A stretch of 64,000 nucleotides of DNA from NCBI GenBank assembly GCA_000146465.1, contig CP001951.1; one strand, 5' to 3'. Below, in pieces: positions 9,127 through 59,110 of this stretch. Position 1 is the first letter of the stretch, and each line of letters opens with the position of its first letter. The notes below the pieces were generated by a model. That model saw only the letters and a list, made by a program, of their open reading frames with translations. It did no database searches and was not told the origin of the DNA. A program made the position numbers and the translations under genes.

Positions 9127-9347
9127 TGCATAGGACTATCAATAAAGATAAGTATTTACATTCTCATAGAATGAAGAATAAATTAGATATCCGCTTAGGT
9201 TTTATTTTGAGTTTTCTAATCTATGTTCCATCTTTTTAAGTGAATAGAAGGTTAAAACAGAGATGAAACCACATCGGACACAAGTATCAACATGTTAGAG
9301 CTTGAAGGATTATTGAAAGTATTTACTTTCCTTGGAGTTCCACATCA

Positions 9348-34348: not shown

Positions 34349-37300
34349 TTACACATCAAGCCTACTTCCGTACACAATAGTCTTCAAGTATTCCCTGTCG
34401 CAGTGCCCCATGTTCTCGGCACAGAGCATAAGATCTTTTAGGCCGAATTGGCTATTCCTGTTGGACATTTCCACATGGAATTTCACCAGATCTTCATCTC
34501 CTCCAGAAAAAGATGCAATGGCAGTCCCCTCCTGTGTTCCATAGCCTTTACAATAAACAACCTTGGTATCCTCCATCAAAGAGTGTTTTTTCCCTTCCTC
34601 AATCGTGAGTATCAGCCTGCTATTTCCAGATTTCTTACAGCTTCCCAGGAAATGTATGTTTTTTATCAAGTAGGTTCTGTCTTCCTGAGACTCCTCTTCC
34701 AACATCCTGTAGATCTTCTCATTGTTTTCCTTGGGCCCTGCCGATATCACAGCCGTTATCGCCATCTTTTCTTCGATAATGTGTGTTGCGATATCGCAAG
34801 CAATTATAAGAGTGTAGTCAAACGGATGCCTTGACATTTCATGAATTAAGCCTTCATATTCATCTTTGGTGTCTGGAAATGTGCTTGAGTAAAAGGAATC
34901 TACACTCCTCGAAATCACATCTCTTACCAAGTTCATATCCGCATCTACCATACCAGCCCACATATTCTCGAAGTTGTCCCTGCACAATCTACTTTCAAGA
35001 ATGGGATATATCACGTTCTCCACATACTCCCTATAAATCCTGAAAGAAAGATGTACTCCATACGCTTCAAAGAAGATTTTACTCTTTCTACCAAACACTA
35101 GATTAAGAATTTCATATACCTCTCTCTTTTTGCTATGCTGTTTGCTGATGCTTCTTTCCTTCTCCAATTTCTTTTTATGCTCGTAGACTTCATTGAGCGG
35201 TGCATGTTCAACTATCAGTTCAAGAAGTCTCTCCTCCAACCGCTCTAGATTCCCTGACTCCTCTGTCTCAAATCTCTCTACAAAACTACAGTTGTATGTA
35301 TATTCCTTGTAAGGATTTGTCTTTGTGCTCGATACCAGTATAATAGAGTATTGTGGATTGTCCATCTGCCGTTTGAGAGCTCTATACACGTCCTTGTCAA
35401 ACCGATCGCATCCATAAACAATGACATCGTTCCCATAGTAGCTGCAGTTGGACAATACCTGCTTGTAGTTTTTATCTTCAAGGCTGGTCGAGATAAACCT
35501 TCTTGCCCTGGTAAGAGCCGAAATGCCACTGCTATGAACAAATCCGTTTCTTTTGCAATGAAGAACCCAGTCGGTGCTCGAGAGAATATACTTTATAGGA
35601 CACAAGTATTTCATTCTTCTCCATTTCTCCACCTCATCAGATAGCTCTCTTACAATCTTATCCATCAGGAGAGCTCTTTCATCTGCCGACTTGATTTCCT
35701 TCTTTATAGACTCAAGCTTAAGAACCGATGCATTATATTCGTCTTTCATTGCCTCAATTTTCTTTTCAATCTGTAAAAGCTTCTTTTCCTCCTCCTCTAT
35801 TTCCTTCCTGCTCTTTTCAACCTCCTTCCCAAGCACTGCTATCTCTTGATCCAGAGGAGAAATCTCCTCCATAGTCTTGGCATATTTATATCTCGCCATC
35901 ACCCACATAAAGAGTGGCCCGCAAGCACTACTTGCCTTCTGTGCCTTTTCATAGCTGAACAGAGGATTCGATATCATATTCTCGAGAACATCAGGTACTT
36001 TTGTACTCCTGCAGTTCAGAACCTTAGAAACAAAATCCTCTCTTTTCATAAACTGGATCAATTGTTTCCATTCAATGCTCCCTCCCTTTGTCTCTCCTTC
36101 CACAATCCAATACACTGCCTCTACAGTGTTTCTAACTATTTCAGGCGGGTTGATCATCACTCTGATCTCCGACAAGCTACTCTTCGGCAGTTCCTCTATA
36201 CTTCTTCTAGACTCAGATAGTAATGTCTTTGCCACTCTAAGCCTTTTGTCTATCACCTCCTGTTTCTTCTGATTCATCATCAACGCTCCTTCTATTTCTC
36301 TCTTCCTGTTTCCGATTGCTCCTTTCTCCCTTTCTAACTGTTTCTGGGTATTGATGATCTTTTCGAGCTGCCCGTCTAGCCTGTCCGTGAGCTTTTCCAG
36401 ATCCTTTTTCTTTCGAGAAGATTCAAGCCCTAGGGCTAGTGCCTCCTTTCCGAAGTCCTCAATCTTCTGCAGCCCCCCTATCAGGAATTTCCTTCTTCTA
36501 GATTCCTTTTCCTTGAACTCTCTTGCAATCCTTGCAAAGCTCATTCCGAACCCAATTGCTTTACAGAGGAAACCAGTTGTCACCACATTGGGATGCTGGC
36601 ATTCCCATGGATGTCCATCTTCCTCGACTCCCATTGCCAAGGAAGATGTTTCCGAAGGAATCCCTTCATTTTCCAAGTCAATGTTGATACCAACATTTGT
36701 TGTAAAGCATTCTTTTACCATATCCAGATCGGATATGTCTTTGCTTCTCACCATATTATAGATCTTAAGTAGGTCCAGAGAATAATAAGCTGTTCTCTTC
36801 AGCTTGAAAATCATACATTGGTTGGATATATCTTTCCTTAGAGAAGACACATCCTCTACAAGAAAAGCAGTTTGCCCATCAATCTTCTTTTCGTCCTCAT
36901 TACTAACTATCCTTACATTTTCCTTCATCTGTCTCATACACTCTCTCACCACCCAATGCTTTCCTGACATCCTACCTCCTTCAATCACAAGATTGTACCC
37001 TCTGTGGAAAATAGACCCTACGTAGGAAATATCGCTGCATCTCTTTGCCCTTCTGAACCTTCTAGTCTCAAGATTAAACTCAATCTCTTCAGGACGTCTT
37101 CCAAAAGCCCTTTGCATCTCTTCTTCCAAATCCTTTGATTCTCCAAAGTAAATCTTTGCTTCAAAGTACATCAGATCAACCAAATCTCCCTCCTCCATAC
37201 ACAGATCCCCTAGTGTCCTGATAAAGCTGGTGATTTCCTTCAGGTTGACTTTGAAGTTTTTGTAGATAAACTCCACCACCTGTAAGACCCTTTTGTAGTC

Positions 37301-40300
37301 CTGGAAATGCTTCGTTGCTTCAAATCTTTTTCTGATTTCCGACTCAAAAAGAAGTTCCGTATCTCTCGGCTCTTCCACAAATATAGACTTTATCTTTCTT
37401 CTCAGTCTTTCTGCTGCCGTGTTCCGAATTGCATCATTCCCTTTCTTTTCATTGATTCCACATATTAAAACCATGTTCTTTACCTCTATCTCTCCAATTC
37501 TTCCACACTCGTTATATTCCCTAACTGCCTCCACCAGACTTACATTCCTACAGTCAAAACCCTCAATGTAAACCACCGATCTTAAATCATATATCTTCTC
37601 TTCTCCTACTCTCTTTATCTTGTCTTCCCCAAGACTTTGAGCGATCATCGAGGTCTCAAATCCGTTTCCCTCAATCACAACAACCTTCTCCTTAAAAACC
37701 TCTTCAACCAACGACCTCTTCCCAACTCCTACTTCTCCTCGCATGAAAAAGACTTTTGAACCGTCTTTTACTAGTGCTTCCATTGCCCTTGCATAAAAGC
37801 TCTGTTCTTCTGTTACCACCAAACCTCTAAATGGGAACACAGGTACCTTTCTTCCATCGTATCTTATGTCCATACCAGTCCCAACAGTGTTTTGGAGATT
37901 CCCTATCTGGTAAAGATCGTCCTCTTCCATGTGAACAAGAAACACCCTGGTTAGGGTGGCAGGTGTTATATTCTCCATAGACGTGCTTTCAAACACAAAC
38001 CTATAGTGGTCTGGAATCCTAATTCTTTCTCCGGAACTCAGGCATAGTAACTTATTTTCGTCTAATATAGAGTTGAAATCTTCAATCCAGAAGGACTCTG
38101 CAATCCCATCAAATACAAACCAGCATTCCTTGCTACTGTCCATGTTCCTTCTTAGATCTCGAACAAACTTGCTATCTTTCCACTCTCCAGTAACCTTGTC
38201 TTGGAATCCAAATATCTTCCCTATATTTCTCGGGTTGTAGTAAAAGCACATCGCTCCTCTGGACTCTCTTGCTAATTTTATCAATGTACTCTTCCCAGCC
38301 CCATTCCCTCCTATGACAAGAGCTCCTCTCCTGTTCTCCAACCCATATAGTAGCATGTCTTTGTGTGCTAGGTTCTGCTCCACTTTCCTTTCAAAAATCT
38401 TCTCAAATTCTTTAACAAATATAGCTTTGTCTTCCCGCCCAAGACAGGCCATATAAAAGTAGATTGCCGATCTCATAATCTCCGCCTCTTCTCTTCCCTT
38501 TGTGATCGTTCTTACTGCTCTTAACCCAAAATCATAATGATCCTGCTTACTTGCCTTGGACTCCACTTCCCTCATTAGCCTGTAGATCTTTTCCGAACTT
38601 TCTTTACAATAGTAGTCTATAATGTCTTTTATGTCTGGTGCATCTATTCTTGTTTCCCCGAGTATGGCTCTTAGGCTTCTAGGCATCCTGTACCGACCCT
38701 TATATCCTATGTTCATCGTAAGGAAGAACTTTGTCTTATTTTTGTTAAGGAGAATCAGCTCAGTCGCCCCACTCATTATCTCTTCACTCAGTCGATTGAA
38801 CTCGTCAAAACATAAGTAAGACCCTGTAAGAACTGCCCCCGAAATAACATTTCTTAAGGTTTCAAGCTCACACCCTTCGTTGCAGCAAAAAACAAAAACA
38901 GGCTTTCCAATAAGCCTACAGTAGTATTTCACCGACTCTGTCTTTCCTGTTCCGCTTCTTCCATACAGAATCACCCCACATAAACTTTTTAGCGAAATGG
39001 CTATACTTGAAAGTACCCTACATACTAAGGGTGTAAATACAATGTCTACCGGTGGGTAGTATTCAAAACCATACTCTATCTCTTCAGTGGAATCCATAAA
39101 GAGCTCCCCACTCTTCAGTACAGGTTTTGGATATAGCCTTATCACTCCATTCGGATGCTTCTCAATCTCCCTTTCTAGTACTCTAAGCTTTGGAGTCATT
39201 TCAAAATCTCTTTTGTTGAAGTACTTAAACTCGGAAATCAAATCGGAAATAATTGACGGACATCCCTCTTTGAGACTCTCCAGACCATCGTGGAACCAGG
39301 ATTTGAGGGTTCTCTTGACCTCTTCTTCAAATGTATCCATAAACCCTCCAATATCTTGGTCAATCTGTACCTTCTGGCGAAGCATCACTGTCTCCCCGTT
39401 ACCTTCAAATCCCAAAATACTGCCGTTTTCGACAATAACACCATCTATGTTGAACATCATTCCCAACATCTCCACATAATAGGATCTACTATTCAGCCCC
39501 CGTATAAGATCGATGTCCGAAACAAGATAAAGCCTAGGTGTTCTTTCCCTACATCTCCTAAGGAATACTTTGAGACCTTTCGATATATCGTCAAAGTCTT
39601 TCTTCATACCGAGAAACTCATCTTTATGAGGTAAAAGAGCCCCAAGCTTAACCTCCCATCCACTGGAAGAACTTGGAGTGCTAAATCTATTCAAGACGTC
39701 CAGGAATCTTTTTTTTATCATGGAGTATTTCTTAGCTTCAAAGTCTAATCCATCAGTGGAAAAAACATTTGCGAACTCCCTTATTCCTCTCTGGACCTCT
39801 TCAAGACAAGCCAGAAAGCTGAGACAATCGTCCATGCGCTCCTTAATCCCATTAAGCTCCTCTATAAAGAAGTTCTTTTCATTGAACCTCGATATTGAGT
39901 CATGCTCCACAAGAAGCTTATTAACTCTCTCCTCAACTTGGCTCAAGTCTGGTATAACTACTTCCTCCTTCCGAAGATGCCTCACCTTCAAACTCACTAA
40001 GAATATTTCAGCCCTAGCCCTCTCTATATACCTTTCAACCTCATACTCCATCCTTGAATCGGCTAGCCTCTTTTCTACCTCATCTTTATCCTGTAGAAGA
40101 AAAAATTCCTTTGTCTCCATCTCTGTGTCAAAGTACTTCTTTTTTACATAGGGACTTTTTGTATGCTGTAGACAATCCAACCCAGATATATAGTATTTTA
40201 TCTTACTCTGAAACTCCTTATAATATTCTGCATGGAATAGAGATACATCAATGGACTTTAGAAAAGAGGAAAGTTGCTCCACATCTACATCACATACTTT

Positions 40301-42292
40301 TTGGGACTCATACTTCTTGAGGATAGTCTCAAACCTACTAAAGGTGGCCCACTCAGCATCCAATCCTCCTATTCTTTCTTGTAAGGAACTGCAAATCAAA
40401 GGATAATCCACAATACCAAGAATCTTGTTGAATCTTTTGATTTTCTCTTCAAGCTCTTCGTATCTTGTCTTAAGAGATTTAAACATAGGCCAAAACATTA
40501 GTCCGTCTCTTTCCTTGGCTGCATTGTCTATCTTTTCCCCAAAATCTCGAATCTCAGAGACCAAGGCCTCTCGTCTTGACTTTATGATGCCAAACGGAAT
40601 ATCATTTAGAAATAAGTTCAAGGCTTCCCTGTTTGCTTCTAGAGCACTATCCCTTTCACTCCGGACAGTCTCAATGGCCACGCTTGGTCTTTCCAGTCCA
40701 TACTCAATGACGGCCCCATTCAACTCTTCAAGAATTCGAAATTCCTCGGACCGGAGATATTCATCAACCAGTATGGAATTGGATATTCCCTCAAGCAGAT
40801 CTCTTCTCTCCATACTGCTTTCTTGGGATCCAGAATCTCCCATGCCCCCAACCATATCCTTCCTTGCAGCTAGCATATCGTAGACTCTGGAGTTTTCTGC
40901 ACTTACAAACCTGCAAACTTCATCGCATACCGTCTCAAACAACCTCGCTTGTTCTGAAGCATCCATAGTATGTTCAAAGGTAAAAAATGGAATTGTATTC
41001 TTAACAAACATCTCGACACTTCTTTGCGAATCCCGGACTCTCAGAAACCTTTCGTAAAGCCCCAAAGGAAGGTCCCAAGTCGGAATCAACTCCAATATTC
41101 TTGTGCAGGTTTCATAATTTGCCACAACCATTCCAATTATTTTTTCCACTTTAGACCTTATTTCCTGGCCTGGCCTGAGCCTTTGAAGAACCTTTTCAAA
41201 GAAATATCCTTCTCCTTCCGAAGGAAATATCTTCTCCAAAATCTTAAAGTACTCAGAAAGAGGAGGTTCAAAACAATGCTCCACACCATTCCCACATCCT
41301 TCGATCTTTACAATTTCTTTCTTAAGCCTATGTTTTGAGGAAAACAGACTGCTGTCTCCTGCTTCTAAGGCCTCCAGTACAGATTCAAGATATTGTAGGA
41401 ACACTCTGCTCATAGACCTATTTATCCCTCGCACTACAATGCTCTTTTCGTAAAACTTAAAAAACTCCAAGTAAGTCTCGCTGTCGAGAGAAAACAGCAT
41501 CTGCTTCTGGATTTGTTTGGAAAATATTGCTTTCATTTCCTCCTTGGCTATCTTTTTTAAAAGGAATCTGTAGGTGTAAACCCTGTTCTCAAGCTCCCGA
41601 ACTCTGTCGTCGATCTCTTCTATGTCTTGGAAGTCCTTTGCATCCTTCCATCGCAGCATCAAGATCTTTTCCATTGATCCAAACACCAAATCTATCTCCT
41701 TGTGAAACAGATCTAGGTCTTCACGCACATCCTCCAATATCCTGTTGATTCTCCTGCATCCATCATCAATTCTTGTGTAAATAGATCTAGCCTCTAATGC
41801 TAAAGCCATTGTCTCATGGATAGGTTGAGAAATCCGAGACCTAACACCCTCCAGAGATACAATAGTCATGTACTCATCCAGCCTCTTTAGAATGGTAGGC
41901 TCAGGTGACACCTTGAACTTCCTGTTTCCATCGGCTTCCCTACTAATGCTCACTATTCTTCCCCAGGAAAATCCATCAGAAAGCACGGAATTTTCCCACT
42001 CATATATTGTGTCACTTACCTGTCTTTCTATGCTCTTTTTCATCCTTCGGATCTCCCACAGCTGCACTATCCCGTCATAATCCTGCCCAAAAAATAGATC
42101 TAGAATCTTCCAGACTTCTCCAAACATGTCGTGAAACATGAACAGTCTAGATAGCTTATTACAGAAATTGTCATCCAGAGATGGAGGACATGACTTTACA
42201 ATAGAGTCTAGGTATCTGACAATCATCATCCTATTGTTAACTGTTTTTCTTGCGAAAATCTCGAACAGGTTGAAGATGGAGAACATTTTCAT
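34349..42292 (-). CDS. DYN1: cytoplasmic dynein heavy chain (compact form, about 2650 aa)
   Basis: The AAA1 P-loop region GRSGTGKTESVKYYCRLIGKPVFVFCCNEG...CFDEFNRL matches the dynein consensus GPAGTGKTESVKALG...VFNCDE...CFDEFNRI. Further P-loops are GGNGAGKST (AAA2) and GEVGVGKRS (AAA3), followed by a coiled-coil stalk and microtubule-binding region and a linker-like N-terminus. The track start at 42337 is a TTG, and the first ATG is at 42292. Confidence 0.85.
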   Translation of the reverse strand: MKMFSIFNLFEIFARKTVNNRMMIVRYLDSIVKSCPPSLDDNFCNKLSRLFMFHDMFGEVWKILDLFFGQDYDGIVQLWEIRRMKKSIERQVSDTIYEWENSVLSDGFSWGRIVSISREADGNRKFKVSPEPTILKRLDEYMTIVSLEGVRSRISQPIHETMALALEARSIYTRIDDGCRRINRILEDVREDLDLFHKEIDLVFGSMEKILMLRWKDAKDFQDIEEIDDRVRELENRVYTYRFLLKKIAKEEMKAIFSKQIQKQMLFSLDSETYLEFFKFYEKSIVVRGINRSMSRVFLQYLESVLEALEAGDSSLFSSKHRLKKEIVKIEGCGNGVEHCFEPPLSEYFKILEKIFPSEGEGYFFEKVLQRLRPGQEIRSKVEKIIGMVVANYETCTRILELIPTWDLPLGLYERFLRVRDSQRSVEMFVKNTIPFFTFEHTMDASEQARLFETVCDEVCRFVSAENSRVYDMLAARKDMVGGMGDSGSQESSMERRDLLEGISNSILVDEYLRSEEFRILEELNGAVIEYGLERPSVAIETVRSERDSALEANREALNLFLNDIPFGIIKSRREALVSEIRDFGEKIDNAAKERDGLMFWPMFKSLKTRYEELEEKIKRFNKILGIVDYPLICSSLQERIGGLDAEWATFSRFETILKKYESQKVCDVDVEQLSSFLKSIDVSLFHAEYYKEFQSKIKYYISGLDCLQHTKSPYVKKKYFDTEMETKEFFLLQDKDEVEKRLADSRMEYEVERYIERARAEIFLVSLKVRHLRKEEVVIPDLSQVEERVNKLLVEHDSISRFNEKNFFIEELNGIKERMDDCLSFLACLEEVQRGIREFANVFSTDGLDFEAKKYSMIKKRFLDVLNRFSTPSSSSGWEVKLGALLPHKDEFLGMKKDFDDISKGLKVFLRRCRERTPRLYLVSDIDLIRGLNSRSYYVEMLGMMFNIDGVIVENGSILGFEGNGETVMLRQKVQIDQDIGGFMDTFEEEVKRTLKSWFHDGLESLKEGCPSIISDLISEFKYFNKRDFEMTPKLRVLEREIEKHPNGVIRLYPKPVLKSGELFMDSTEEIEYGFEYYPPVDIVFTPLVCRVLSSIAISLKSLCGVILYGRSGTGKTESVKYYCRLIGKPVFVFCCNEGCELETLRNVISGAVLTGSYLCFDEFNRLSEEIMSGATELILLNKNKTKFFLTMNIGYKGRYRMPRSLRAILGETRIDAPDIKDIIDYYCKESSEKIYRLMREVESKASKQDHYDFGLRAVRTITKGREEAEIMRSAIYFYMACLGREDKAIFVKEFEKIFERKVEQNLAHKDMLLYGLENRRGALVIGGNGAGKSTLIKLARESRGAMCFYYNPRNIGKIFGFQDKVTGEWKDSKFVRDLRRNMDSSKECWFVFDGIAESFWIEDFNSILDENKLLCLSSGERIRIPDHYRFVFESTSMENITPATLTRVFLVHMEEDDLYQIGNLQNTVGTGMDIRYDGRKVPVFPFRGLVVTEEQSFYARAMEALVKDGSKVFFMRGEVGVGKRSLVEEVFKEKVVVIEGNGFETSMIAQSLGEDKIKRVGEEKIYDLRSVVYIEGFDCRNVSLVEAVREYNECGRIGEIEVKNMVLICGINEKKGNDAIRNTAAERLRRKIKSIFVEEPRDTELLFESEIRKRFEATKHFQDYKRVLQVVEFIYKNFKVNLKEITSFIRTLGDLCMEEGDLVDLMYFEAKIYFGESKDLEEEMQRAFGRRPEEIEFNLETRRFRRAKRCSDISYVGSIFHRGYNLVIEGGRMSGKHWVVRECMRQMKENVRIVSNEDEKKIDGQTAFLVEDVSSLRKDISNQCMIFKLKRTAYYSLDLLKIYNMVRSKDISDLDMVKECFTTNVGINIDLENEGIPSETSSLAMGVEEDGHPWECQHPNVVTTGFLCKAIGFGMSFARIAREFKEKESRRRKFLIGGLQKIEDFGKEALALGLESSRKKKDLEKLTDRLDGQLEKIINTQKQLEREKGAIGNRKREIEGALMMNQKKQEVIDKRLRVAKTLLSESRRSIEELPKSSLSEIRVMINPPEIVRNTVEAVYWIVEGETKGGSIEWKQLIQFMKREDFVSKVLNCRSTKVPDVLENMISNPLFSYEKAQKASSACGPLFMWVMARYKYAKTMEEISPLDQEIAVLGKEVEKSRKEIEEEEKKLLQIEKKIEAMKDEYNASVLKLESIKKEIKSADERALLMDKIVRELSDEVEKWRRMKYLCPIKYILSSTDWVLHCKRNGFVHSSGISALTRARRFISTSLEDKNYKQVLSNCSYYGNDVIVYGCDRFDKDVYRALKRQMDNPQYSIILVSSTKTNPYKEYTYNCSFVERFETEESGNLERLEERLLELIVEHAPLNEVYEHKKKLEKERSISKQHSKKREVYEILNLVFGRKSKIFFEAYGVHLSFRIYREYVENVIYPILESRLCRDNFENMWAGMVDADMNLVRDVISRSVDSFYSSTFPDTKDEYEGLIHEMSRHPFDYTLIIACDIATHIIEEKMAITAVISAGPKENNEKIYRMLEEESQEDRTYLIKNIHFLGSCKKSGNSRLILTIEEGKKHSLMEDTKVVYCKGYGTQEGTAIASFSGGDEDLVKFHVEMSNRNSQFGLKDLMLCAENMGHCDREYLKTIVYGSRLDV

Positions 42293-42314
42293 GACCTTGC
42301 ATAGCTTGTGAAAC

Positions 42315-43781
42315 TTATCTCCATCCTCCTGTGGCAATAATACCCCCAGAACTTCGGTTTCTTTCTTTCTCGCCTTCCTCCAGGATATCAGAGTCTATGT
42401 CGCAAATCCTTTCGAAAGCCTCGTTGAAAACATCGGAGACAAACCCCTCCTGTTGGTCAAATACAACTTCTAGTCTAGCCTTAATGTTGAAGAGATCTTT
42501 CTTCATCCATCCTACCACAGGCCTCAAGTCAGGATCTCCAATCTCAGATATCATTTCTTGTAGCAGGCTTCTGTATCTTATTTCATGGGCAGCCTTTTCT
42601 GGAGAACTCTTCAGTAACTTAGGAACAACTGCTCCAAGTCCCTTGAACGACCAAGAAAAGAGAAGGATTTTCTTGATGTCTTTGAATTCGGAGTGAAATT
42701 TGGCCAACTCCTCTCCTCCCCTGAATTCATAGAACAATGACGACTCTAAGGACATGGCCTCAGATTCCTCGCCCTCCCTAGAAACAGTAAGTGAGCACAT
42801 ACTCTCTATAGAGCATAAAAGTAGTTCTTCACAACACTTAAGCCACCCAATCGATAGGTTCTCATGCACCTTGTCGATTATTAGCCAAACTAGTCTATCC
42901 ATCTGGGAAAGAATCAGTTTTCGAGCCATCTTCGACTGTCTTCCAATTCTTCTGCCGATTTCCTTTATAGCACTAACTGTAGAGTCCTTGAACTCGTCCA
43001 AGCTCCTTGGAAAATAAACTCCCTTAAAGTCCATGCCCTCATAGAAGCCATGAAGCCCTCTTCCAAGTTCGAAGTACTTGTTTGATAACATCAAGCTCTC
43101 TAGGGTTGCTGCAGAAACAAACCTTTTACTCCTCTTCAAAACATCATGAACAAATCCAAATACTTCGGACTTTCCGAATTCTCTTATATAGCACATCTCC
43201 ATATAGAATTTGCTCCAGAAGGTCTTTTCCTCATGAAACCCACTTCTTTTGAATCCTACGGACTCATGAAGTCCTCTTATGCAGCTGGTCCACTGTTCCA
43301 CATTCCTATGAATAAGCTCCAGCTCACCACTAGAAAGAAACCTTTCGGGGTCAAGCCCATTCTGAAGCTCCTCACCATGCTTCCTATAAAGCCGATCCAT
43401 TTCCTGGGTTTCCATGCTAAGATAGATCTTTTCTTTCTTATCTTCTTCACTTACGGCTTTGCTGAGATGCAGGGCATGATGCTCTAACAACCGGAGAGCC
43501 TTCTCTACAGCCACAGATACACCCTTCTTTTTAATCCTAGACATGGTGGCTGGTATTACGAAGTTCGACATTGCATCTACCATGAATTCACATGAGCCTT
43601 TGAGTATGAGAAGCCCATCCTTCCTGTGATTGACTATACAGTCTGCTCCGACCTGGGATTTCTCTTTACATTCATAGGAATGTCCATTACTATCCGAGAT
43701 ACATTTATGAAAATCCGTAGTAGACTTCAATTTGTCCACAATTCTGTCTATCTCATCGCAAAGTGTATTGTTTGTGTCCAT
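42315..43781 (-). CDS. hypothetical protein, possibly an N-terminal (tail) portion of the dynein heavy chain separated by a frameshift
   Basis: 501-aa ORF on the same strand. Its stop lies 22 nt upstream of the dynein ATG. The track start is a TTG, and the first ATG is near 43781. Predicted helical, with no assignable motif. See the dynein finding. Confidence 0.45.
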   Translation of the reverse strand: MDTNNTLCDEIDRIVDKLKSTTDFHKCISDSNGHSYECKEKSQVGADCIVNHRKDGLLILKGSCEFMVDAMSNFVIPATMSRIKKKGVSVAVEKALRLLEHHALHLSKAVSEEDKKEKIYLSMETQEMDRLYRKHGEELQNGLDPERFLSSGELELIHRNVEQWTSCIRGLHESVGFKRSGFHEEKTFWSKFYMEMCYIREFGKSEVFGFVHDVLKRSKRFVSAATLESLMLSNKYFELGRGLHGFYEGMDFKGVYFPRSLDEFKDSTVSAIKEIGRRIGRQSKMARKLILSQMDRLVWLIIDKVHENLSIGWLKCCEELLLCSIESMCSLTVSREGEESEAMSLESSLFYEFRGGEELAKFHSEFKDIKKILLFSWSFKGLGAVVPKLLKSSPEKAAHEIRYRSLLQEMISEIGDPDLRPVVGWMKKDLFNIKARLEVVFDQQEGFVSDVFNEAFERICDIDSDILEEGEKERNRSSGGIIATGGWR

Positions 43782-43804
43782 TGGAGGGTCAGAAGAGCAA
43801 AGAT

Positions 43805-44725
43805 ATGAGAACCTTAACAATTGATGGAAGAGCCCTAGTTATGGACATCCACATGCTAAGAAAGGAAAGAGAAAACTGCATCAATGAAAGAGATCGGCTC
43901 ATTTCTGAAATGGACTCTTTCATCGTAGGGTCGATGGGGGAAATAAGAGAAGCATTGACCATTCCCGAAACTACTGTCTGGGAAATCTCTCAGGAGGATC
44001 TCTTGCTATTTGTCTCCTGGAGGATATCCAAGCTGATTTCTCTAACAAGAGATAAAAAGATAGAAATTCTCAGCAAGCTCGTTTGGGAAAAGGTGAACTA
44101 CAAAGACTTGGAGAACATCCTAGTCGCCGAGTATTGCTACAAAAAAGTGTTGGCAAACGACTTTTCGGAAAGTTCTGCCTGGGATACCGATGTTTACATT
44201 GACATAGGAAATGGGGATGTGGACATAAAAAGCGATTCTGTGGAAAGAATAACAACTGGTTCGGATGGGGTCTTTTACAGATCACTGAATGGTCTATTTT
44301 CGAAGAGGTTCCATGTGAGGGTTAGCAAGGAGCTAATGAGGTCTTATGCCCTGAATATAAAGGTGGAGATGGGCCTGGAGATCTTCAAAAGCCTCTATGA
44401 GAAGGATGAGGAAGACCTGAAAAGGCTGTCATCATACAAACACTACAAGGAGAAAGGGCTTCCCACACTCGTTATGAGCGGTGAAATGACAAGTAATCTG
44501 ATGGAAGACATAAGAGCAAGAGTTTCCCAGGAAGTTACTGGAATAATTGCTGCAGAAATGCCAGACAGAAAAAAGGCGCTTCTCATCACCTACCTCCTTG
44601 TGATGTTTGGAGGAATCGGGTCGGATCTTGACTTAAGCTATTTCAATGGGAAGAAAGAATTATACATGCTGGAATGGACAAAATCCAAAGAAAATATTTT
44701 TATCAAAATACAACTCGAGAGCTAA
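43805..44725 (+). CDS. hypothetical protein
   Basis: The track start at 43763 is a GTG, and the first ATG is near 43805 (MRTLTIDGRALV...). About 306 aa with no recognisable domain. Divergent from the 501-aa ORF, with about 23 bp between their first ATGs. Confidence 0.45.
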   Translation: MRTLTIDGRALVMDIHMLRKERENCINERDRLISEMDSFIVGSMGEIREALTIPETTVWEISQEDLLLFVSWRISKLISLTRDKKIEILSKLVWEKVNYKDLENILVAEYCYKKVLANDFSESSAWDTDVYIDIGNGDVDIKSDSVERITTGSDGVFYRSLNGLFSKRFHVRVSKELMRSYALNIKVEMGLEIFKSLYEKDEEDLKRLSSYKHYKEKGLPTLVMSGEMTSNLMEDIRARVSQEVTGIIAAEMPDRKKALLITYLLVMFGGIGSDLDLSYFNGKKELYMLEWTKSKENIFIKIQLES

Positions 44726-46538: not shown

Positions 46539-48923
46539 ATGTCTGGAAAGAAGGAGAGACTTCTGAAAAAGTATTTGGAAAAGAAAAAGAGGCAGAGGAA
46601 TAGAGATGAGCTGTATGCACAGATAGCTGCATTATGTAGGCCTGAGGAGGATAGAAAGGAACAAGAAAAGTCTGAAAAGAGGAAGCTGGAAGAGGTCCGG
46701 AGTGATTCTGAAGACATCTCGTTGTCAGTCTCAGAAGACTCTCCATCTTCCTCAGAAAATGAGGTAGGCCATTCTTTACAAACCAAGGCGATGGATGTTG
46801 GATGTGAAACCATGAAAGACTCGAATGAGGAGGAGGCAATGGATATGTATTTGTGGGATACCCACGCAAGAAACATCCAAGAAGAAGCCAAGAATGCCAT
46901 GGTATTTTCCGAGGATAAAGAGTCTTCGGAGTGTGAAGACGGCACTGGAGATTCTGTTTCTGAAGACAGAAATACCTACATTTCTGAAGAGACAGGAAAA
47001 GATGTATCCAAAGAGTATGAGACAAAGACTCTTGAAAACCGACGGGAAGACATCGAAGAGTACAGAAAGACATTGCCGATTTACTACGAGAAGGCGGAAA
47101 TCATATTTACAGTCCGGAACTCCTCGATAGTATTTATTACGGGAGCAACTGGATGCGGGAAGACAACCCAAATTCCACAGTTTCTCTATGAAGGGGGGTT
47201 GGGGACATATGGAATGATAGGTGTTACACAGCCAAGAAGAATATCGGCAGTCTCGATATCCGGAAGGATCAACGAAGAAGCTAATGAGGATATTTGTGGA
47301 TACAAAATCCGGTACGAGTCGTCGGTTACTTCTGAAACCAAGATCAAAGTAATGACGGACGGAGTACTACTAAGAGAAATACAAGAGGATTTTCTCTTGT
47401 CAAAGTATTCTGTCATCATCATTGATGAGGTTCATGAAAGAAGCACTAACATCGACCTCCTAGTCTCTATGATTCCTCGGATCATGAAGATAAGAAAGGA
47501 AAGAGGAAATGAGCTTAAGCTAGTTCTGATGAGTGCCACCGGAGATGTGGATGAATTCAAAGCATTCCTTGGAGACATTACTGTCTTTAGATGTCCTGAG
47601 AAGGGATTCCAGGTGAACACGTTCTATGAGGAAAGGACCGAAATGGACTATCTGAATGCAGCATATGAAAGAATAAGAAAGATAATTCTTTCTGGATCCG
47701 ACTCTGGAAAGAGAAGAAAGATGAATGGAGAAAGGTCGGATGTGATTGGCTCTGCCGTTTCCAACGACAAGTCTGCTTCAATTCTTGTTTTTCTTAGCAG
47801 CAAGCAAGAGATATATCAGCTCAAGAGTAGGCTGGAAGGTTCTGGAATGGATTTGACTGCTCTCCCTCTCCATTCATCTCTCTCTCGAGCGGAGCAGGAG
47901 CTTGTGTTTAAAAAAACTCCGAATAGGAAGGTAATACTTGCCACCAATGTTGCAGAAACCAGTATTACAATACCAGACATTGTCTTTGTGGTTGATTCGG
48001 GGAAAGTCAAGAACCGGATGGTTGACTCCGAGGGAATTACAAGATACTCTGTCGACTTTATTACGAAGTCAAGCGCAACCCAAAGAATGGGAAGAGCTGG
48101 GAGAACCGGGCCTGGAATATGCTACCGACTGTATTCTGGAAAGGCTTATGAGAAGTTCTTTGAGTGTATGGAGCCGCAGATTTTGAGAGAACCTCTTGAT
48201 GGAGTAGTGCTCGGCCTTCTGTCTCTGGGAATTGGAAATGTTTATGGATTTCCGTTTCTCTCCAGGCCTGAAAAGAAATCCATAGCTAGTGCCACTATGC
48301 GCCTCCAAGCACTGGGTGCAATTGATGGAAACCTAAGGTTAACAGAGCTGGGGAAGAAGATGTCGATGTATCCTGTAGAACCTAGGCTGGCAAGACTGCT
48401 TTGCGCACAGGGATTTGAGGATATATTTACTGAAATCCTTGTTCTTGTCAGCTTGATTTCCTTGGGTATCGAAGTGAGGAGGAACCACAGCAACGGAAAG
48501 TATTTTGAAGGCTCCAAAAGCGATCTTCTAGTTCTTCTGGGAATCTACAATGATTTCTTGAAGAGTAGAAATAGAAAGTCGTTTTGCACAGAAATGGGCC
48601 TGGGCTATACAACAGCAGTTGAGGCGATGAAGATGATAACACACCTGGCAAAAATCACTGGTGGTACAGTGGACAAAGTTGGGTCCCTAAACTTGACTCC
48701 GGACACATGTTCCCGAATAAGAAACATAATATATCGAGGATTTGCAGATCACCTAGCCATGCCTTTATCCGGCACTCATTTCTTTCAAAAAGAAGAAGTC
48801 TCTCCATCGAGGGATAGCGTCTCGGTTGAAAGCGGGGACTTTGTTGTCTTTGGGAGCCTGGTTTCTAGCAAAGGGAAGCTATATATGAAAAACATCACCA
48901 TTGTCGAGGAAAGCTGGTTTTAA
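46539..48923 (+). CDS. DHR1: DEAH-box ATP-dependent RNA helicase, DHR1/DHX37-like
   Basis: The acidic N-terminus is followed by GATGCGKTTQIPQFLYEGGLGTYGMIGVTQPRRISAVS, KIKVMTDGVLLRE, DEVHERS, SAT, TNVAETSITIPDIVFVVDSGKVK and QRMGRAGRTGPGICYRLYS. The closest pattern is yeast Dhr1/Ecm16. ATG is preceded by tctccctgg. Confidence 0.9.
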   Translation: MSGKKERLLKKYLEKKKRQRNRDELYAQIAALCRPEEDRKEQEKSEKRKLEEVRSDSEDISLSVSEDSPSSSENEVGHSLQTKAMDVGCETMKDSNEEEAMDMYLWDTHARNIQEEAKNAMVFSEDKESSECEDGTGDSVSEDRNTYISEETGKDVSKEYETKTLENRREDIEEYRKTLPIYYEKAEIIFTVRNSSIVFITGATGCGKTTQIPQFLYEGGLGTYGMIGVTQPRRISAVSISGRINEEANEDICGYKIRYESSVTSETKIKVMTDGVLLREIQEDFLLSKYSVIIIDEVHERSTNIDLLVSMIPRIMKIRKERGNELKLVLMSATGDVDEFKAFLGDITVFRCPEKGFQVNTFYEERTEMDYLNAAYERIRKIILSGSDSGKRRKMNGERSDVIGSAVSNDKSASILVFLSSKQEIYQLKSRLEGSGMDLTALPLHSSLSRAEQELVFKKTPNRKVILATNVAETSITIPDIVFVVDSGKVKNRMVDSEGITRYSVDFITKSSATQRMGRAGRTGPGICYRLYSGKAYEKFFECMEPQILREPLDGVVLGLLSLGIGNVYGFPFLSRPEKKSIASATMRLQALGAIDGNLRLTELGKKMSMYPVEPRLARLLCAQGFEDIFTEILVLVSLISLGIEVRRNHSNGKYFEGSKSDLLVLLGIYNDFLKSRNRKSFCTEMGLGYTTAVEAMKMITHLAKITGGTVDKVGSLNLTPDTCSRIRNIIYRGFADHLAMPLSGTHFFQKEEVSPSRDSVSVESGDFVVFGSLVSSKGKLYMKNITIVEESWF

Positions 48924-52261: not shown

Positions 52262-55039
52262 TTAATTTTCATAAATATTACTTGCCTCTCCTCGCCCTGC
52301 CGATCTTTGCAGTGTTTCCTTTATCCTTTCAGCCCTTTCAACAATTTCTTCCGGAACCCCTGCCATTCTTGCAACATACAACCCATGGGAGTCCCAGGAC
52401 GTCCCATCCATGAGCTTGTACAAAAACACAATGTCCTTTCCCTTAACCGTCGAATTCATATATCCATTACTGACTCCTTCAACCTCTCTGATGATCCTGT
52501 GATAATGGGTTGAAAACAGAACATGGCATCCTCTCTCCTTAAGGTAGTCCAGAACGGCCCTGGCAATGCACTCTCCGTCTCGGGTCGAAGTCCCTCGTCC
52601 AAGTTCGTCCATCATCACAAGGGAGTTTCTTGTTGAGTGCTTCAGGATGCTTGCCGTTTCCCCTAGCTCAACCATAAACGTCGATTCTCCCTTTACCAGG
52701 TCATCCCGTGCCCCTATCCTGGTAAATATCCTGTCAAAGAGAGGCGTCTCCATCTTCTCACAGCACACATCCATTCCTGCCTGGCTGAGAATTACATTGA
52801 AGCACAAAGTCCTTAATAAGGTCGACTTTCCCCCCATGTTGGCACCAGTAAGCACAAGAATTCTCTTTTGTGCATTGTAGTCATTTGCTACAAAGGTAGG
52901 ATATATTGGATTCGACATTCCACAGATGCGAAGCCCTTCCGAAAAGGTGGGGGTTGTTGCTCTGTTCCTTTGCGAAAAGGTAGTAAACGAAAGATAACAA
53001 TCTACATTTGCAAGTTCCCAGAACATCTGGCGGAAGAAAACAACATGTGGAAGAAGTACATCTATGGCTCGCCTAAGCAACGACCCCTTGGATTGGAATA
53101 TCTTCTCTTCGCACTCAACATATCTTTCAACAAGATTTTTCAAATCTCTTGTGTAGTACCTATTGGTTCCCTTGGTGGAAGACATTATGAAGTAGTCTGA
53201 TGGAACTTTCGTCTCCTTTGCTACCTCCATTTGGAATATGTCCTTTCCTACGTCTTTGAACTTTATCGATTGACATTTTAGCCTGGCCTTTTGTTCCCGT
53301 AAATATTCATTCAGGCCTTCCTCAATTTCTCTCCTTTCTTTCATCAACTGGCACAGTTCATCTCCATCCTCCTCTCCAGGAGATATTTCTGTCTCGCTCA
53401 CATCATAGATTTTACGGTGCCATTCAAGCACTTTGCTTATTTCCCGGCTGAATTCTTCTGCCTTTGCAACCATAGATTCTGCGCTATCACTTTTCTGGCC
53501 CTTCAGTGTCTGTACCAAGACATCTCCTGCCTCTCTACAGGCATCCAGACACCTAATGAATTTGTTTAGGTCCTTAGTACCCGGGTTTCCATTGAAGAGC
53601 CTTGTCAAAAGCCTCTCCCCATCCCCTATCCTCGCCAAGGCATTCTTTAGGTTAGAAACCTCCACCTCTTTGAACATACGTGCTGTTTCTTGTCTCTTTG
53701 CAATGTCCTCCCTCCTTACAAGTGGTGCTGCTATCCATCTTCTAAGGAGCCTTTGTCCAAAGGGTGTGCTAGAGAAGTCAATTGCCTTGAAGAGAGTCTT
53801 CTCCCCTGTTCCATTGTAATTGTTCTTGAATATCTCCATATTCCGGAGAGTGGCGTCATCAACAACCATGGTTCTTGCCTCGTCCTGAAGCTTCGAGATC
53901 TTTACATTCTTCAAAGCATCACTTCTCCGAAGCTTCTCCATATACTTTGCCAAATACTGGAAACATACATACTCTCTGGAGTTTGAAAACTCATACTTCT
54001 TGCTTGACACATATCCCGTCTTATCAGGCACAACCCGTGGAATCCCTGGGATGGTGAAGTCTGCAATCATCTCCCGGACATCGTGTTGGGACAGAATTGT
54101 CTTGATTCCATGTCTTGCTCTGTCATCACAGAAAGACGAAAAATACACTTCTCCAATGCTTGCATCATACAGCAAAACAGATGTATGAATCTCTCCATTG
54201 CACTTCTCTGCATAACAAATCTCATCTGTCGCCACACTCATCAAATACATAGGAATTGACGACTTCATGTAGTCTATATTGTATATCGTCCCCTGTGTAA
54301 TAATCTCCTTAAGCTCTCGCCGTATTATTTTGTCCTTGGCCATCCTGCCCTCCACTCCCTTGCTCAGCTCGTCTCTTTCTCGTATCTGCTTTCCAATCAT
54401 GTTTTCGCTTTGGTCTACTCTAGCAATCTTGTATCCGTTCTCCAGAAACTTTCTGGTCCAGTAGTCAAGACTACTCTCAGGGAACCCGGACATCTTCATG
54501 TTTACTCTATCTGTAATTCTCAGATCAAATAGTTTTGCTCCGATAAGTGCATCGTTCTCGTATAGCTCGTAGAACTTTCCCTTCTTAAAGAACACAATCG
54601 TATCAAAATGATCCTTCTTTATGTCCCAAAATTGCTTTTCAAAGGGTGTAAATCTATTGTACTCGCTCTTCGGTATCAAGAGCGTTGAGGGATCATATCC
54701 TTCTTCTCCCACTCTTCTCCCGTTTCTGTCCCTAATATCTTCCAGAAATTTATATCTCTCCTCTGTCTTCTTCTCTTCTTTTTCTTCTTTTCCTAATCCC
54801 TTGTTGCTTCTATAAGATGGCTCCACATCCGAGGGTACTATAGGTTTGGAACCATCTGCTGCCTCTTCTCTTTCCTCGGGACTTGGAGCCTTACAAATTC
54901 TCTTGTGCTCCTTGAGATCCAAAATACCAGTGGAGTTTCTGCTGTTCTCCAAATCAACCATCCGGTCCAATGTCTCCCCAGAATCCTCCTTTTTCTTCGG
55001 AGCTTTAAAGTAGTCAAATAGTGTCTTTCTTTCTTTCAT
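52262..55039 (-). CDS. MSH6: DNA mismatch repair protein MutS homolog, MSH6-like
   Basis: The MutS ATPase domain reads LTGANMGGKSTLLRTLCFNVILSQAGMDVCCEKME...STFMVELGETASIL...MMDELGRGTSTRDG...THYH. The N-terminal mismatch-binding domain carries the MSH6-type Phe-x-Glu in MSGFPESSLDYWTRKFLENGYKIARVDQSE. The track start at 55057 is a GTG, and the first ATG is at 55039. Confidence 0.85.
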   Translation of the reverse strand: MKERKTLFDYFKAPKKKEDSGETLDRMVDLENSRNSTGILDLKEHKRICKAPSPEEREEAADGSKPIVPSDVEPSYRSNKGLGKEEKEEKKTEERYKFLEDIRDRNGRRVGEEGYDPSTLLIPKSEYNRFTPFEKQFWDIKKDHFDTIVFFKKGKFYELYENDALIGAKLFDLRITDRVNMKMSGFPESSLDYWTRKFLENGYKIARVDQSENMIGKQIRERDELSKGVEGRMAKDKIIRRELKEIITQGTIYNIDYMKSSIPMYLMSVATDEICYAEKCNGEIHTSVLLYDASIGEVYFSSFCDDRARHGIKTILSQHDVREMIADFTIPGIPRVVPDKTGYVSSKKYEFSNSREYVCFQYLAKYMEKLRRSDALKNVKISKLQDEARTMVVDDATLRNMEIFKNNYNGTGEKTLFKAIDFSSTPFGQRLLRRWIAAPLVRREDIAKRQETARMFKEVEVSNLKNALARIGDGERLLTRLFNGNPGTKDLNKFIRCLDACREAGDVLVQTLKGQKSDSAESMVAKAEEFSREISKVLEWHRKIYDVSETEISPGEEDGDELCQLMKERREIEEGLNEYLREQKARLKCQSIKFKDVGKDIFQMEVAKETKVPSDYFIMSSTKGTNRYYTRDLKNLVERYVECEEKIFQSKGSLLRRAIDVLLPHVVFFRQMFWELANVDCYLSFTTFSQRNRATTPTFSEGLRICGMSNPIYPTFVANDYNAQKRILVLTGANMGGKSTLLRTLCFNVILSQAGMDVCCEKMETPLFDRIFTRIGARDDLVKGESTFMVELGETASILKHSTRNSLVMMDELGRGTSTRDGECIARAVLDYLKERGCHVLFSTHYHRIIREVEGVSNGYMNSTVKGKDIVFLYKLMDGTSWDSHGLYVARMAGVPEEIVERAERIKETLQRSAGRGEASNIYEN

Positions 55040-55064
55040 TTCCTGGCCTCTTACCACCGAAAAT

Positions 55065-56165
55065 TTATACAGGCCTGGGGCTTTTTACAGATGCACTTGC
55101 AACTAGAACAAGCACAACAAAGGCTGCTACAGACATCAGCTCCAAGCTTACATCTGGAGTCCGCCCAGACAGAAGCACGCCCATAGTTACTGTGAGTGTG
55201 GAGAGAAGATGCCTCTGGAACAGCTTCATGGAGTCTTTGCTGACACATTTGTTTATGCAGGGACAATGATGATCAAACCCAAGCACACATCTCTCGCAGA
55301 TAGAGCAATGTTTGGTTCCACCAGCTTTCCGTACTAGGCACGTGTAGCAGAAATGCTCCATTGTGTATTCGTCTTGTTCTATCATCGTAGACACCAACTC
55401 CCTTGCCTCTTGGTATGTACCCACAGGACCGAACCTTGGTCTGGTCAAGAACAAACAAACCAGATTGAAGAAATACTCAAGTGTGTGGGTTGTATGCTCA
55501 AAGTCTTCTCCAAGCACCTTGTAGCTAATGTAGAAAGAATAAAACAGATTGAGATACACAGGAAGTCTTGTGCGTGCCACTCTTCCCCAGAAGATCAGAA
55601 AAACAGCAACAACTCCAACTTGCCATGCCTTCCCTAAGAAAAAAGATCCCCAGTGCATCCCTATCGATATTCCTTCTATCATCCAGATCTTATACCTGTC
55701 CGTAACTCGATTTGCTTCCAGAAACCTCTCCACATTCCTAGCACGCTTTCCCCTTGCATATACACGCAGCGTTCTTCCCTTGAAGTCTTCGACACCCGCG
55801 TCTGCACCATAGCTCAAGAGAAGAACCATTCCTAGCACATCGTCAAATCTGGCACACGTATGCAACAGCCCCATTCCACTTTTGTTCACATAGGTGATGT
55901 CTGCACCGTTTTCTATCAGGAGTTTCATAACCTTATAGTTTGAGTTGTAAAGTGCATAGTATAGGGGCGAGCTATCAAGAGCTCCTCCAACACTGTTAAC
56001 AATCCCAGGATCCTTCACCAGTCTATGGCAGACGTCCAGGTTGTTGTACATCGACGCCCAATGAATAAGACCGGTTCCATCGGAAAAACTGTAGCTGTTT
56101 GGAACCGAATCCAGAAATACTGAGCTATTTGCCATTAAGGCTGCCTTTATTTCCTCATCGTCCAT
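55065..56165 (-). CDS. AKR1: ankyrin-repeat DHHC-type palmitoyltransferase (AKR1-like)
   Basis: N-terminal ankyrin repeats (GLIHWASMYNNLDVCHRLV, SPLYYALYNSNYKVMKLLIENGAD). Transmembrane segments are followed by the DHHC-CRD CYTCLVRKAGGTKHCSICERCVLGFDHHCPCINKCV. ATG is verified. Confidence 0.9.
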   Translation of the reverse strand: MDDEEIKAALMANSSVFLDSVPNSYSFSDGTGLIHWASMYNNLDVCHRLVKDPGIVNSVGGALDSSPLYYALYNSNYKVMKLLIENGADITYVNKSGMGLLHTCARFDDVLGMVLLLSYGADAGVEDFKGRTLRVYARGKRARNVERFLEANRVTDRYKIWMIEGISIGMHWGSFFLGKAWQVGVVAVFLIFWGRVARTRLPVYLNLFYSFYISYKVLGEDFEHTTHTLEYFFNLVCLFLTRPRFGPVGTYQEARELVSTMIEQDEYTMEHFCYTCLVRKAGGTKHCSICERCVLGFDHHCPCINKCVSKDSMKLFQRHLLSTLTVTMGVLLSGRTPDVSLELMSVAAFVVLVLVASASVKSPRPV

Positions 56166-56268
56166 CCGATAAACAAAATAGATAAATATAAGGTTGACAG
56201 GAGGCAGGAGAAAATGAACTCCTGGAGCATCTGGGAAGGATCTAATAAAAACATATTCGGAAGACCCT

Positions 56269-57069
56269 ATGATTCATGACGAAAAGATGCTTCTGAAGTC
56301 TCTGGAACACAAAAATATAGAGGAAAAAGAGATCTTCCCCTCAATATGCTCTGTTCTTGGCCTTCAGTACTTCTCGGAGGAGAACGGAGCCCTGGCACAT
56401 ACGCTTGCAAGTCCTTCATTCATCATAGACATATCTGGATTGAGTGCAAAGCTGACTTTTGTTGACGAAAGCTTTTCAAGGTATTTTAAATATGTCGAGT
56501 TCTACTTGTGCCAACATCTTGAGAAGAGGAACATGCGGGACTTCTACTTCTACCTTAGGATGTTTGTGCGGATGGAGACGGGAAACGAGGGGCTTGAGGA
56601 AAAGGACTCGGGAGACATTTGCCAATGTGTCTTTAATGGAGGCTACTGCATAAATCCGTCTTTCAGGGATGTGGCTAAAAGTAGTACCGATGGGATTTAC
56701 GACATATACAGGCACAGATTTGAATATCACATGTACACGAAAAGATTTATCTTCCCCATTCCTGTGAATGATCCTGTAGAAGATGAGGACTCTGGCTTCT
56801 TGGTGGCCGAGGGTGTGAATGGAAAGCAAATGAATGCAAAGGTAAGCCTGAACCTGTCCAGATACTTTGGGCCCAAAGCCTTTGACCGTGAGGTGCTCAG
56901 GATACTTCCCCATATAGGCTTTTATTGGAAAGGAATGGTGGATCATGAGGAAGTGGTTGTTCGGAAGGACCTTGGTGTATATGTCAACGGAGAGCTACGT
57001 AGAGATGCAGCCTTTCTCATGAAGCTTGGGAAGAACTTGCATCTTTCTCTTAACTTCCTCAGGGACTAG
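56269..57069 (+). CDS. hypothetical protein
   Basis: 266-aa ORF with an ATG preceded by gaagaccct. No recognisable domain. A 156-aa antisense ORF overlaps it. Confidence 0.5.
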   Translation: MIHDEKMLLKSLEHKNIEEKEIFPSICSVLGLQYFSEENGALAHTLASPSFIIDISGLSAKLTFVDESFSRYFKYVEFYLCQHLEKRNMRDFYFYLRMFVRMETGNEGLEEKDSGDICQCVFNGGYCINPSFRDVAKSSTDGIYDIYRHRFEYHMYTKRFIFPIPVNDPVEDEDSGFLVAEGVNGKQMNAKVSLNLSRYFGPKAFDREVLRILPHIGFYWKGMVDHEEVVVRKDLGVYVNGELRRDAAFLMKLGKNLHLSLNFLRD

Positions 57070-57141
57070 TCTCCCATGGCCAAGACTCTTCTTATCGCAC
57101 CCTGTACTTGAAAGTTCACAGGAGACAACCCTCCTCTCATA

Positions 57142-57645
57142 ATGCTGGTTGTGAACGGGACTGGTCTAAGAAGAAACTCAATTATAGAGTTATGTGTGTT
57201 TCCGGACATGAATGTTCATAGAATGATGGTTGAGCTGAGCAAACAGACAGACAATCCTGTATTCTTCGACACCGTTGGAAACCTAAGAGTAGTAGCAGAT
57301 GCCTCGTTTATCCTGAGCTATAGAAAACTTGTGAAGGCACTTCTGTCCCTGAAATCTAGAAGAGGATTTGTGCTGTTCATTGATTCCATTTCATTTCTTG
57401 CAGATAAATCTGTGGCAAATCTCCAGAGGTTTTACAACATTCTGTGGATGCTGATATACGAGAACGATGCCACTATTGTTGTATCGAACCACTACAGGAT
57501 CGTTAGAAATCGAGGAGCTCTTGACTTTGCACTTGAGTTGGGACAGAGGTGGAAAATGATGGTAAGCTACAGGATTATGTATAAATATGTTGGGGACAAG
57601 GTTGTTGCAAAGATCTATAGCGACGAGTTATTTGAGAAAGTTTGA
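57142..57645 (+). CDS. small RecA-fold protein, Rad51-paralog-like with a degenerate Walker A
   Basis: 167 aa. A Walker B-like GFVLFIDSISFL is followed by LWMLIYENDATIVVSNH (compare RecA/Rad51 LxxLAxExxxAVVxTNQ) and ALELGQRWKMMVSYRIMYK. The N-terminal GTGLRRNS replaces a GxxxxGKT P-loop. ATG is preceded by aaccctcctctc. Confidence 0.45.
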   Translation: MLVVNGTGLRRNSIIELCVFPDMNVHRMMVELSKQTDNPVFFDTVGNLRVVADASFILSYRKLVKALLSLKSRRGFVLFIDSISFLADKSVANLQRFYNILWMLIYENDATIVVSNHYRIVRNRGALDFALELGQRWKMMVSYRIMYKYVGDKVVAKIYSDELFEKV

Positions 57646-57710
57646 ATACATGAAAGTTTATAAAACCAATTCACACAACCCCTGTCTTAGATGTTTTATT
57701 CTAAAGCGAC

Positions 57711-57810
57711 TGCCGATGATGAGAGCTCTTGGCTTAGGCTTGCTAGTAGGGATTAAACCCACCCTCTGCAATATCCATATGATGAGAGCAACAAAGAGTC
57801 TCTGAGGCCT
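57711..57810 (+). ncRNA. candidate box C/D small nucleolar RNA
   Basis: Located in the 244-bp convergent spacer. The 5-prime part reads gcc-g-AUGAUGA (C box, 57716-57722). An internal C-prime box AUGAUGA lies at 57779-57785. The D box CUGA at 57802-57805 is followed by ggc, which can pair with the 5-prime gcc to form a terminal stem. A 16-nt putative guide gagcaacaaagagtct lies between C-prime and D. The 11-mer ATGATGAGAGC occurs twice. Confidence 0.3.
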
Positions 57811-57889
57811 TCAAATTAATGTTTATTCCATCTTCCCCCATCGCTTTCCAGAAAGGTCATTGAGGCCAAGCATCATGCATCAAACTGCT

Positions 57890-58990
<1,101 letters not shown>

Positions 58991-59110
58991 TTATCGGCTT
59001 GCCATAGCATTTCATTGGGAAACATTATTCTCTAATAACACCAACAGCCCGAACGGCCATAGGCCCCAACCTACAACCAAAGGACTTCCAAACCACATAA
59101 ACATATTAAT

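Follow-up and report, generated by a model that had tools for sequence, protein, structure and literature searches.

The microsporidian Encephalitozoon intestinalis ATCC 50506 is represented by a 2010 genome assembly (GCA_000146465.1), in which two open reading frames (ORFs) on the minus strand of contig CP001951.1 abut each other in different frames and are both deposited as dynein heavy chain. Here, we analyse a 64,000-nt stretch of this contig (the window, to which all positions refer) and find that the two ORFs are one gene, which encodes a single reduced cytoplasmic dynein-1 heavy chain of 3,142 amino acids (aa). The following features, all on the minus strand, make up the locus as it stands in the record.

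34349–42292: motor ORF (ATG 42292–42290, stop 34349–34351; 2,647 codons plus stop), the 3′ part of the dynein heavy chain coding sequence (CDS) as deposited in 2010; its product holds the remainder of the tail, the linker (DHC_N2), AAA1–AAA4, the stalk and a reduced C-terminal region.
42293–42314: 22-nt gap between the premature stop and the annotated motor ATG, coding (..KFHKLCKV) and conserved in the intact gene.
42315–42357: out-of-frame end of the upstream ORF, which reads ..SSGGIIATGGWR after the tract and then meets the premature TAA at 42315–42317.
42358–42370: A(GAAA)3 tract with one extra 4-nt unit, the frame-shifting discrepancy; (GAAA)3 itself occupies 42358–42369.
42371–43781: 5′ part of the CDS, upstream of the tract, encoding the N terminus of the tail (residues 1–470 of the intact 3,142-aa protein).
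42315–43781: upstream ORF as a whole (ATG 43781, stop TAA 42315–42317), 488 codons in a different frame from the motor ORF.
42395–42397: first upstream stop in the motor frame, which bounds a 77-nt stretch (42318–42394) where both frames are open.

Both ORFs correspond to deposited proteins. The motor ORF is an exact match to ADM12384.1/XP_003073744.1 (exact look-up), and the upstream ORF is identical to the retrieved ADM12385.1/XP_003073745.1 (488 aa), including the same out-of-frame residues at its end. Both entries carry the name 'dynein heavy chain [E. intestinalis ATCC 50506]' and lie on one 234,890-bp contig of the 2010 assembly. A first-pass annotation made from the letters of the window had placed a motor ORF of about 2,650 aa at 34349–42292, and the ORF list and translations bear out these coordinates, with an exact length of 2,647 aa. 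It had also described a 501-aa ORF whose stop at 42315–42317 lies 22 nt before the motor ATG; the stop and the spacing hold, but the figure of 501 counts from a TTG at 43820, whereas the true start codon, the ATG at 43781, gives 488 aa. The dynein frame does stay open upstream to the stop at 42395–42397, as had been observed, and within the 77-nt stretch the coding strand reads GGCGAGAAAGAAAGAAACCGAAG, the purine-rich string to which attention had been drawn.

A protein search with the motor frame returned, at 100% identity, a 3,142-aa 'dynein heavy chain [Encephalitozoon intestinalis]'. The same 90% cluster contains two intact proteins of this length: UTX46217.1, which derives from the telomere-to-telomere (T2T) assembly GCA_024399295.1 (CP075167.1) of the same strain, ATCC 50506, and KAL7344864.1/KAL7346825.1/KAL7348772.1, which derive from isolates ATCC 50507, 50603 and 50651 (PMC12697097). 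The dynein proteins of these three isolates are identical to each other. The translations from the window amount to a 473-residue prefix and a long suffix of the intact protein, which meet between ...EEGEKE and TEVLGV..., with residues 471–473 encoded inside the repeat tract itself. That both ORFs match named dynein entries that cluster with the intact 3,142-aa proteins is one line of support for a single gene. The UTX46217.1 and KAL7344864.1/KAL7346825.1/KAL7348772.1 entries represent the same gene and locus as the window; over the gene, their DNA is equal to it save for the 4-nt unit, plus two single-nucleotide polymorphisms (SNPs) in ATCC 50603. These two lie in the dynein CDS at 40788 (Gly997Glu, GGA to GAA) and at 38594 (synonymous, at Ser1728).

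To locate the discrepancy at the level of DNA, we compared the window with CP075167.1 (T2T, ATCC 50506) and JBLUPK010000028.1 (ATCC 50603). At the tract, the window has (GAAA)3 and all other E. intestinalis assemblies read at the DNA level have (GAAA)2; hence the window carries two CDSs, ADM12385.1 (488 aa) and ADM12384.1 (2,647 aa), where the other alleles have one. Within the same strain, CP075167.1 and window positions 24349–53781 (29,429 bp) differ at two sites only, an SNP at 47199 and the 4-nt gap; the ATCC 50603 DNA shows the same single 4-nt gap at the tract. No further indel separates window positions 1–21225 and 31349–64000 from ATCC 50603/50651, so that the 4-nt unit is the sole indel in about 61 kb compared. 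When 4 nt of the tract are removed in silico, a single ORF of 3,142 codons results, the product of which is identical to UTX46217.1, and this repaired translation contains no second disabling change across the 9.4-kb dynein gene of the window. The first-pass annotation had proposed that a shift between the frames would fuse the ORFs into a protein of about 3,150 aa; the fusion into one protein (3,142 aa) and the position of the shift in the tract it quoted were correct, but what separates the frames is a whole 4-nt unit and not a single base. Only six tetranucleotide tracts of three units occur in the 64-kb window, which argues that the indel is repeat-mediated and not randomly placed. The tract was located by direct alignment; Tandem Repeats Finder reported nothing at the junction, where the 13-nt tract is too short for it, and a metagenome scan for either junction allele yielded no contig.

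At SNP 47199, the window has T (plus strand) and the T2T, ATCC 50603 and ATCC 50651 assemblies have C. The site lies in a DEAH-box helicase gene (46539–48923, plus strand) and is synonymous (Leu221, TTG versus CTG). At both sites where the 2010 and T2T assemblies differ, therefore, the other isolates with DNA covering the site side with the T2T assembly, and the odd state is private to the 2010 record.

The upstream ORF is a dynein tail by several lines of evidence. It shares 100% identity with the intact E. intestinalis protein and 56% with the E. cuniculi heavy chain, over residues 2–473 of both partners in each case. Comparison with the DHC_N1 tail family, which the first-pass annotation had put forward as a check, gave a divided answer. 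Pfam reached DHC_N1 only below threshold on the upstream ORF (E = 0.095; 11.7 bits against a threshold of 28.3), with one orthologue reaching E = 0.006, whereas more sensitive profile and structural comparisons did connect the piece with known tails. A seven-species profile of the 473-residue fragment matched the tail of yeast Dyn1 (5AFR) at E = 4.4e-8 and in register, with query residues 147–308 on chain residues 212–372. In an AlphaFold2 model of the tail fragment, the mean pLDDT (predicted local distance difference test) score was 64.5, with residues 125–330 above 80, and when this model was compared with the PDB by Foldseek, the top 33 matches were all dynein tails (best E = 2.7e-5), although TM-scores were low (0.31–0.41). 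Cytoplasmic dynein-1 tails, taken from dynein–dynactin and related complexes, made up the top 25 of these, and axonemal heavy chains came next; the predicted fold of the E. intestinalis tail matches that of dynein-1 tails in dynein–dynactin complexes. A protein-database search with the 487-aa upstream ORF (42318–43778) alone gave no match, and as entries 100% identical to it are present in that database, the empty result does not indicate orphan status. We conclude that the upstream ORF encodes a true dynein-1 tail.

In six related microsporidia, the orthologue is one uninterrupted chain of 3,135–3,209 aa, in line with the length comparison that had been suggested: E. cuniculi (3,151 aa, M1KAL2), E. 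hellem (3,136 aa), E. romaleae (3,135 aa), Ordospora colligata (3,198 aa) and two Logan proteins retrieved by protein search (3,135 and 3,209 aa). Seven microsporidian species show 39–63% identity to the repaired E. intestinalis protein over its full length, with a mean column identity of 66%. Their alignment is unbroken across the junction: bases 42315–42357, read in the dynein frame, encode the conserved residues (T)EVLGVLLPQEDGD, and the orthologues likewise align over the 22 residues (TEVLGVLLPQEDGDKFHKLCKV) that precede the annotated motor Met. MKMFSIF is therefore not the native start of the protein. The motor ORF had been described as beginning in the linker with no recognizable tail; this does not hold, as the Pfam match to DHC_N2 starts only at its residue 637, so that the motor ORF starts inside the tail.

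The remaining domains follow the order that is shared by the reduced microsporidian DHC1 proteins of E. cuniculi, E. hellem, E. romaleae and O. colligata, namely a short tail, the DHC_N2 linker, AAA1–4, the stalk and a short C-terminal region. On the motor ORF, Pfam matches comprise DHC_N2, AAA_6, AAA_5 and MT. In the repaired protein, the linker (PF08393, DHC_N2) is matched at residues 1132–1494 (E = 1.3e-18) and AAA1 (PF12774) from residue 1569 (E = 2.3e-35), where the GxxGxGKT motif (G1606..T1613) is invariant in the seven species. The stalk family (PF12777) matches all seven orthologues (best E = 8.6e-10); in E. intestinalis itself the match (residues 2479–2716) falls slightly short of the cut-off, with 22.3 against 24 bits, and in the PDB profile comparison the stretch 2407–2722 aligns with the stalk region of human DYNC1H1 (3177–3491). 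Only about 425 residues follow the stalk (approximately 2717–3142 of the repaired protein), and AAA_8, AAA_9 and Dynein_C gave no Pfam match at E ≤ 1 in any of the seven orthologues. From these sequence comparisons, the AAA5–AAA6 half of the ring appears to be drastically reduced or diverged.

A full-length profile searched against PDB sequences found cytoplasmic dynein-1 heavy chains as its best matches (E about 1e-106 to 1e-107). The canonical DHC1 proteins, S. cerevisiae Dyn1 (4,092 aa) and human DYNC1H1 (4,646 aa), are the best matches among solved structures, and the E. intestinalis protein is about 950–1,500 residues shorter than these. With its linker, AAA1, stalk and tail, the protein is a reduced, divergent cytoplasmic dynein-1 heavy chain. 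It does not differ in kind from the other microsporidian DHC1s and is the orthologue of this species.

How the record came to hold two frames allows several explanations. Two separate genes, a 488-aa protein and a tail-less dynein that begins at MKMFSIF, would agree with the listing of two CDSs in GenBank/RefSeq. However, the 488-aa product corresponds to the orthologous heavy chains over residues 1–473 and then adds 15 residues read out of frame, and every orthologue conserves the residues that the dynein frame encodes immediately before MKMFSIF. Nor does any orthologue begin at MKMFSIF with an independent gene upstream, the arrangement that the first-pass annotation had named as telling against a fusion; the alignment is continuous across the junction, and we reject two independent genes on this ground. 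A short intron that bridges the frames could lie in either of two GT..AG intervals of length 3n+1, the only ones found, at 42352–42319 (34 nt) and 42343–42319 (25 nt). The candidates start with GTTCTGG and GTATTAT, which differ from the GTAAGT-like donor of Encephalitozoon introns. Both would remove the conserved VLGVLLPQEDG, and the intact allele needs no intron at all; this reading was likewise rejected, since each interval costs conserved residues. Taken as one proposal, two genes or an intron is very improbable. Programmed +1 ribosomal frameshifting, or transcriptional slippage on the purine-rich tract, has in its favour that the tract AGAAAGAAAGAAA falls within the 77 nt where both frames are open. 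Against it, a single frame suffices for the protein in the re-sequenced same strain (T2T), in three isolates and in six related microsporidia, so that a frameshift is not a conserved property of the dynein gene. Nor can a conserved shift site or a stimulatory element be defined, and the in-frame allele differs only by its lack of 4 nt. We therefore reject programmed frameshifting, which the earlier annotation had listed as an option, and consider it extremely improbable. The gene of the organism is intact, and neither frameshifting, splicing nor internal initiation is needed to express it.

Two explanations carry nearly all of the weight, and both accept the 4-nt unit as the sole lesion. In the one that we favour, the extra GAAA unit is probably a technical error of the 2010 record. 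The unit shifts the frame by +1 and brings a stop 15 codons later, and annotators accordingly deposited two CDSs of 488 and 2,647 aa. A candidate cause is a contig join at which an overlap of 4 nt failed to be collapsed; another is slippage during polymerase chain reaction (PCR) or cloning in the Sanger polishing of scaffold breaks. Either would give exactly a tandem GAAA duplication. A sequencing indel in an A-run had been among the options raised earlier, and an error of the record is indeed favoured, but the discrepancy is a 4-nt repeat unit and not a single base of an A-run. Some points weigh against an error. The gain of one unit of a tetranucleotide repeat is a classic signature of replication slippage in vivo, and errors of this kind seldom arise from Illumina reads. 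With its 13 nt, the tract is also shorter than the Velvet k-mer (19), so that a pure de Bruijn artefact is not expected, and an artefact would need a putative contig join or a PCR/Sanger-polished break at the tract. Indirect support for an error comes from the re-assembly of the same strain, which lacks the unit, and from the way the 2010 record was made: very short Illumina reads (31-bp pairs, 40x coverage) were assembled by Velvet at k = 19, and PCR, cloning and Sanger sequencing served to polish the breaks in the scaffolds (PMC4355639); the other isolates have 300–360x Illumina coverage (PMC12697097).

The extra unit could instead be real, gained by slipped-strand replication and fixed or heterozygous in the ATCC 50506 culture of 2010 and absent from the later-sequenced stock, which we consider possible but distinctly less likely. 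Such an allele would be a recent pseudogenizing, or a heterozygous null, mutation of dynein in a laboratory lineage. As slippage predicts, the indel is exactly one repeat unit and lies in one of the six tetranucleotide tracts; its site is an acidic linker of the tail that varies in length through small indels among the orthologues. Between the two ATCC 50506 assemblies there are 2 differences per 29.4 kb, similar in magnitude to the 2 SNPs per 15.4 kb that separate isolates, which makes some real divergence between stocks plausible. On the other hand, the dynein gene is conserved over its whole length in seven microsporidian species and is intact in four other assemblies, the same strain among them; because the gene holds no second disabling change, any inactivation would have to be very recent. 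A truncated 488-aa tail and a promoterless 2,647-aa remainder would, moreover, most likely abolish the only dynein motor. We thus retain the error of the 2010 record as the best explanation.

Upstream of the true start, the dynein gene shares a short intergenic region with a divergently transcribed neighbour.

43782–43840, minus strand: short intergenic region, 59 nt by the T2T annotation, with probable limits.

In the gene table of the CP075167.1 locus, the neighbour occupies 9057–9941 (minus) and dynein runs from 10001. A CCC motif stands a few bases before the dynein ATG, and the region may act as a promoter. Elsewhere in the window, isolated SNPs relative to ATCC 50603/50651 occur at 58727 (in a methionine aminopeptidase gene, 57890–58966, minus), 13001, 18187 and 47787; these may be strain differences or further oddities of the 2010 record. 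Logan contig ERR13302946_289839 (4,265 bp; European Nucleotide Archive run ERR13302946) is 100% identical to window positions 54838–59102, which places E. intestinalis DNA in that run.

The finding as a whole is already known: both fragments have borne the name dynein since 2010, and the T2T assembly made the intact gene public (PMC10158259). Neither the frameshift nor dynein is mentioned in the articles on the 2010 genome, the T2T assembly or single-cell RNA sequencing, the 2010 supplementary tables being outside the scope of this survey. The 2010 RefSeq assembly GCF_000146465.1 is still in use as a reference, for example, in a 2025 single-cell RNA-sequencing study (PMC11972355). Counts of genes, orthologues, pseudogenes or expression that are drawn from it show dynein as two genes or as a tail-less, truncated motor, and the T2T assembly GCA_024399295.1 is the preferable reference.

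For the biology of the organism the weight of the result is small: this is a known Encephalitozoon dynein, and its split is confined to one record. Reduced microsporidian dynein has already been noted in the literature, where the functionality of the motor was called unknown (PMC3583065). Should the extra unit prove real, the 2010 culture would be a minimal eukaryote with its sole dynein naturally knocked out; a microsporidian in cell culture would have tolerated the loss, or the halving, of its only dynein motor, which would be relevant to whether these shortened dyneins, which lack dynactin, function at all.

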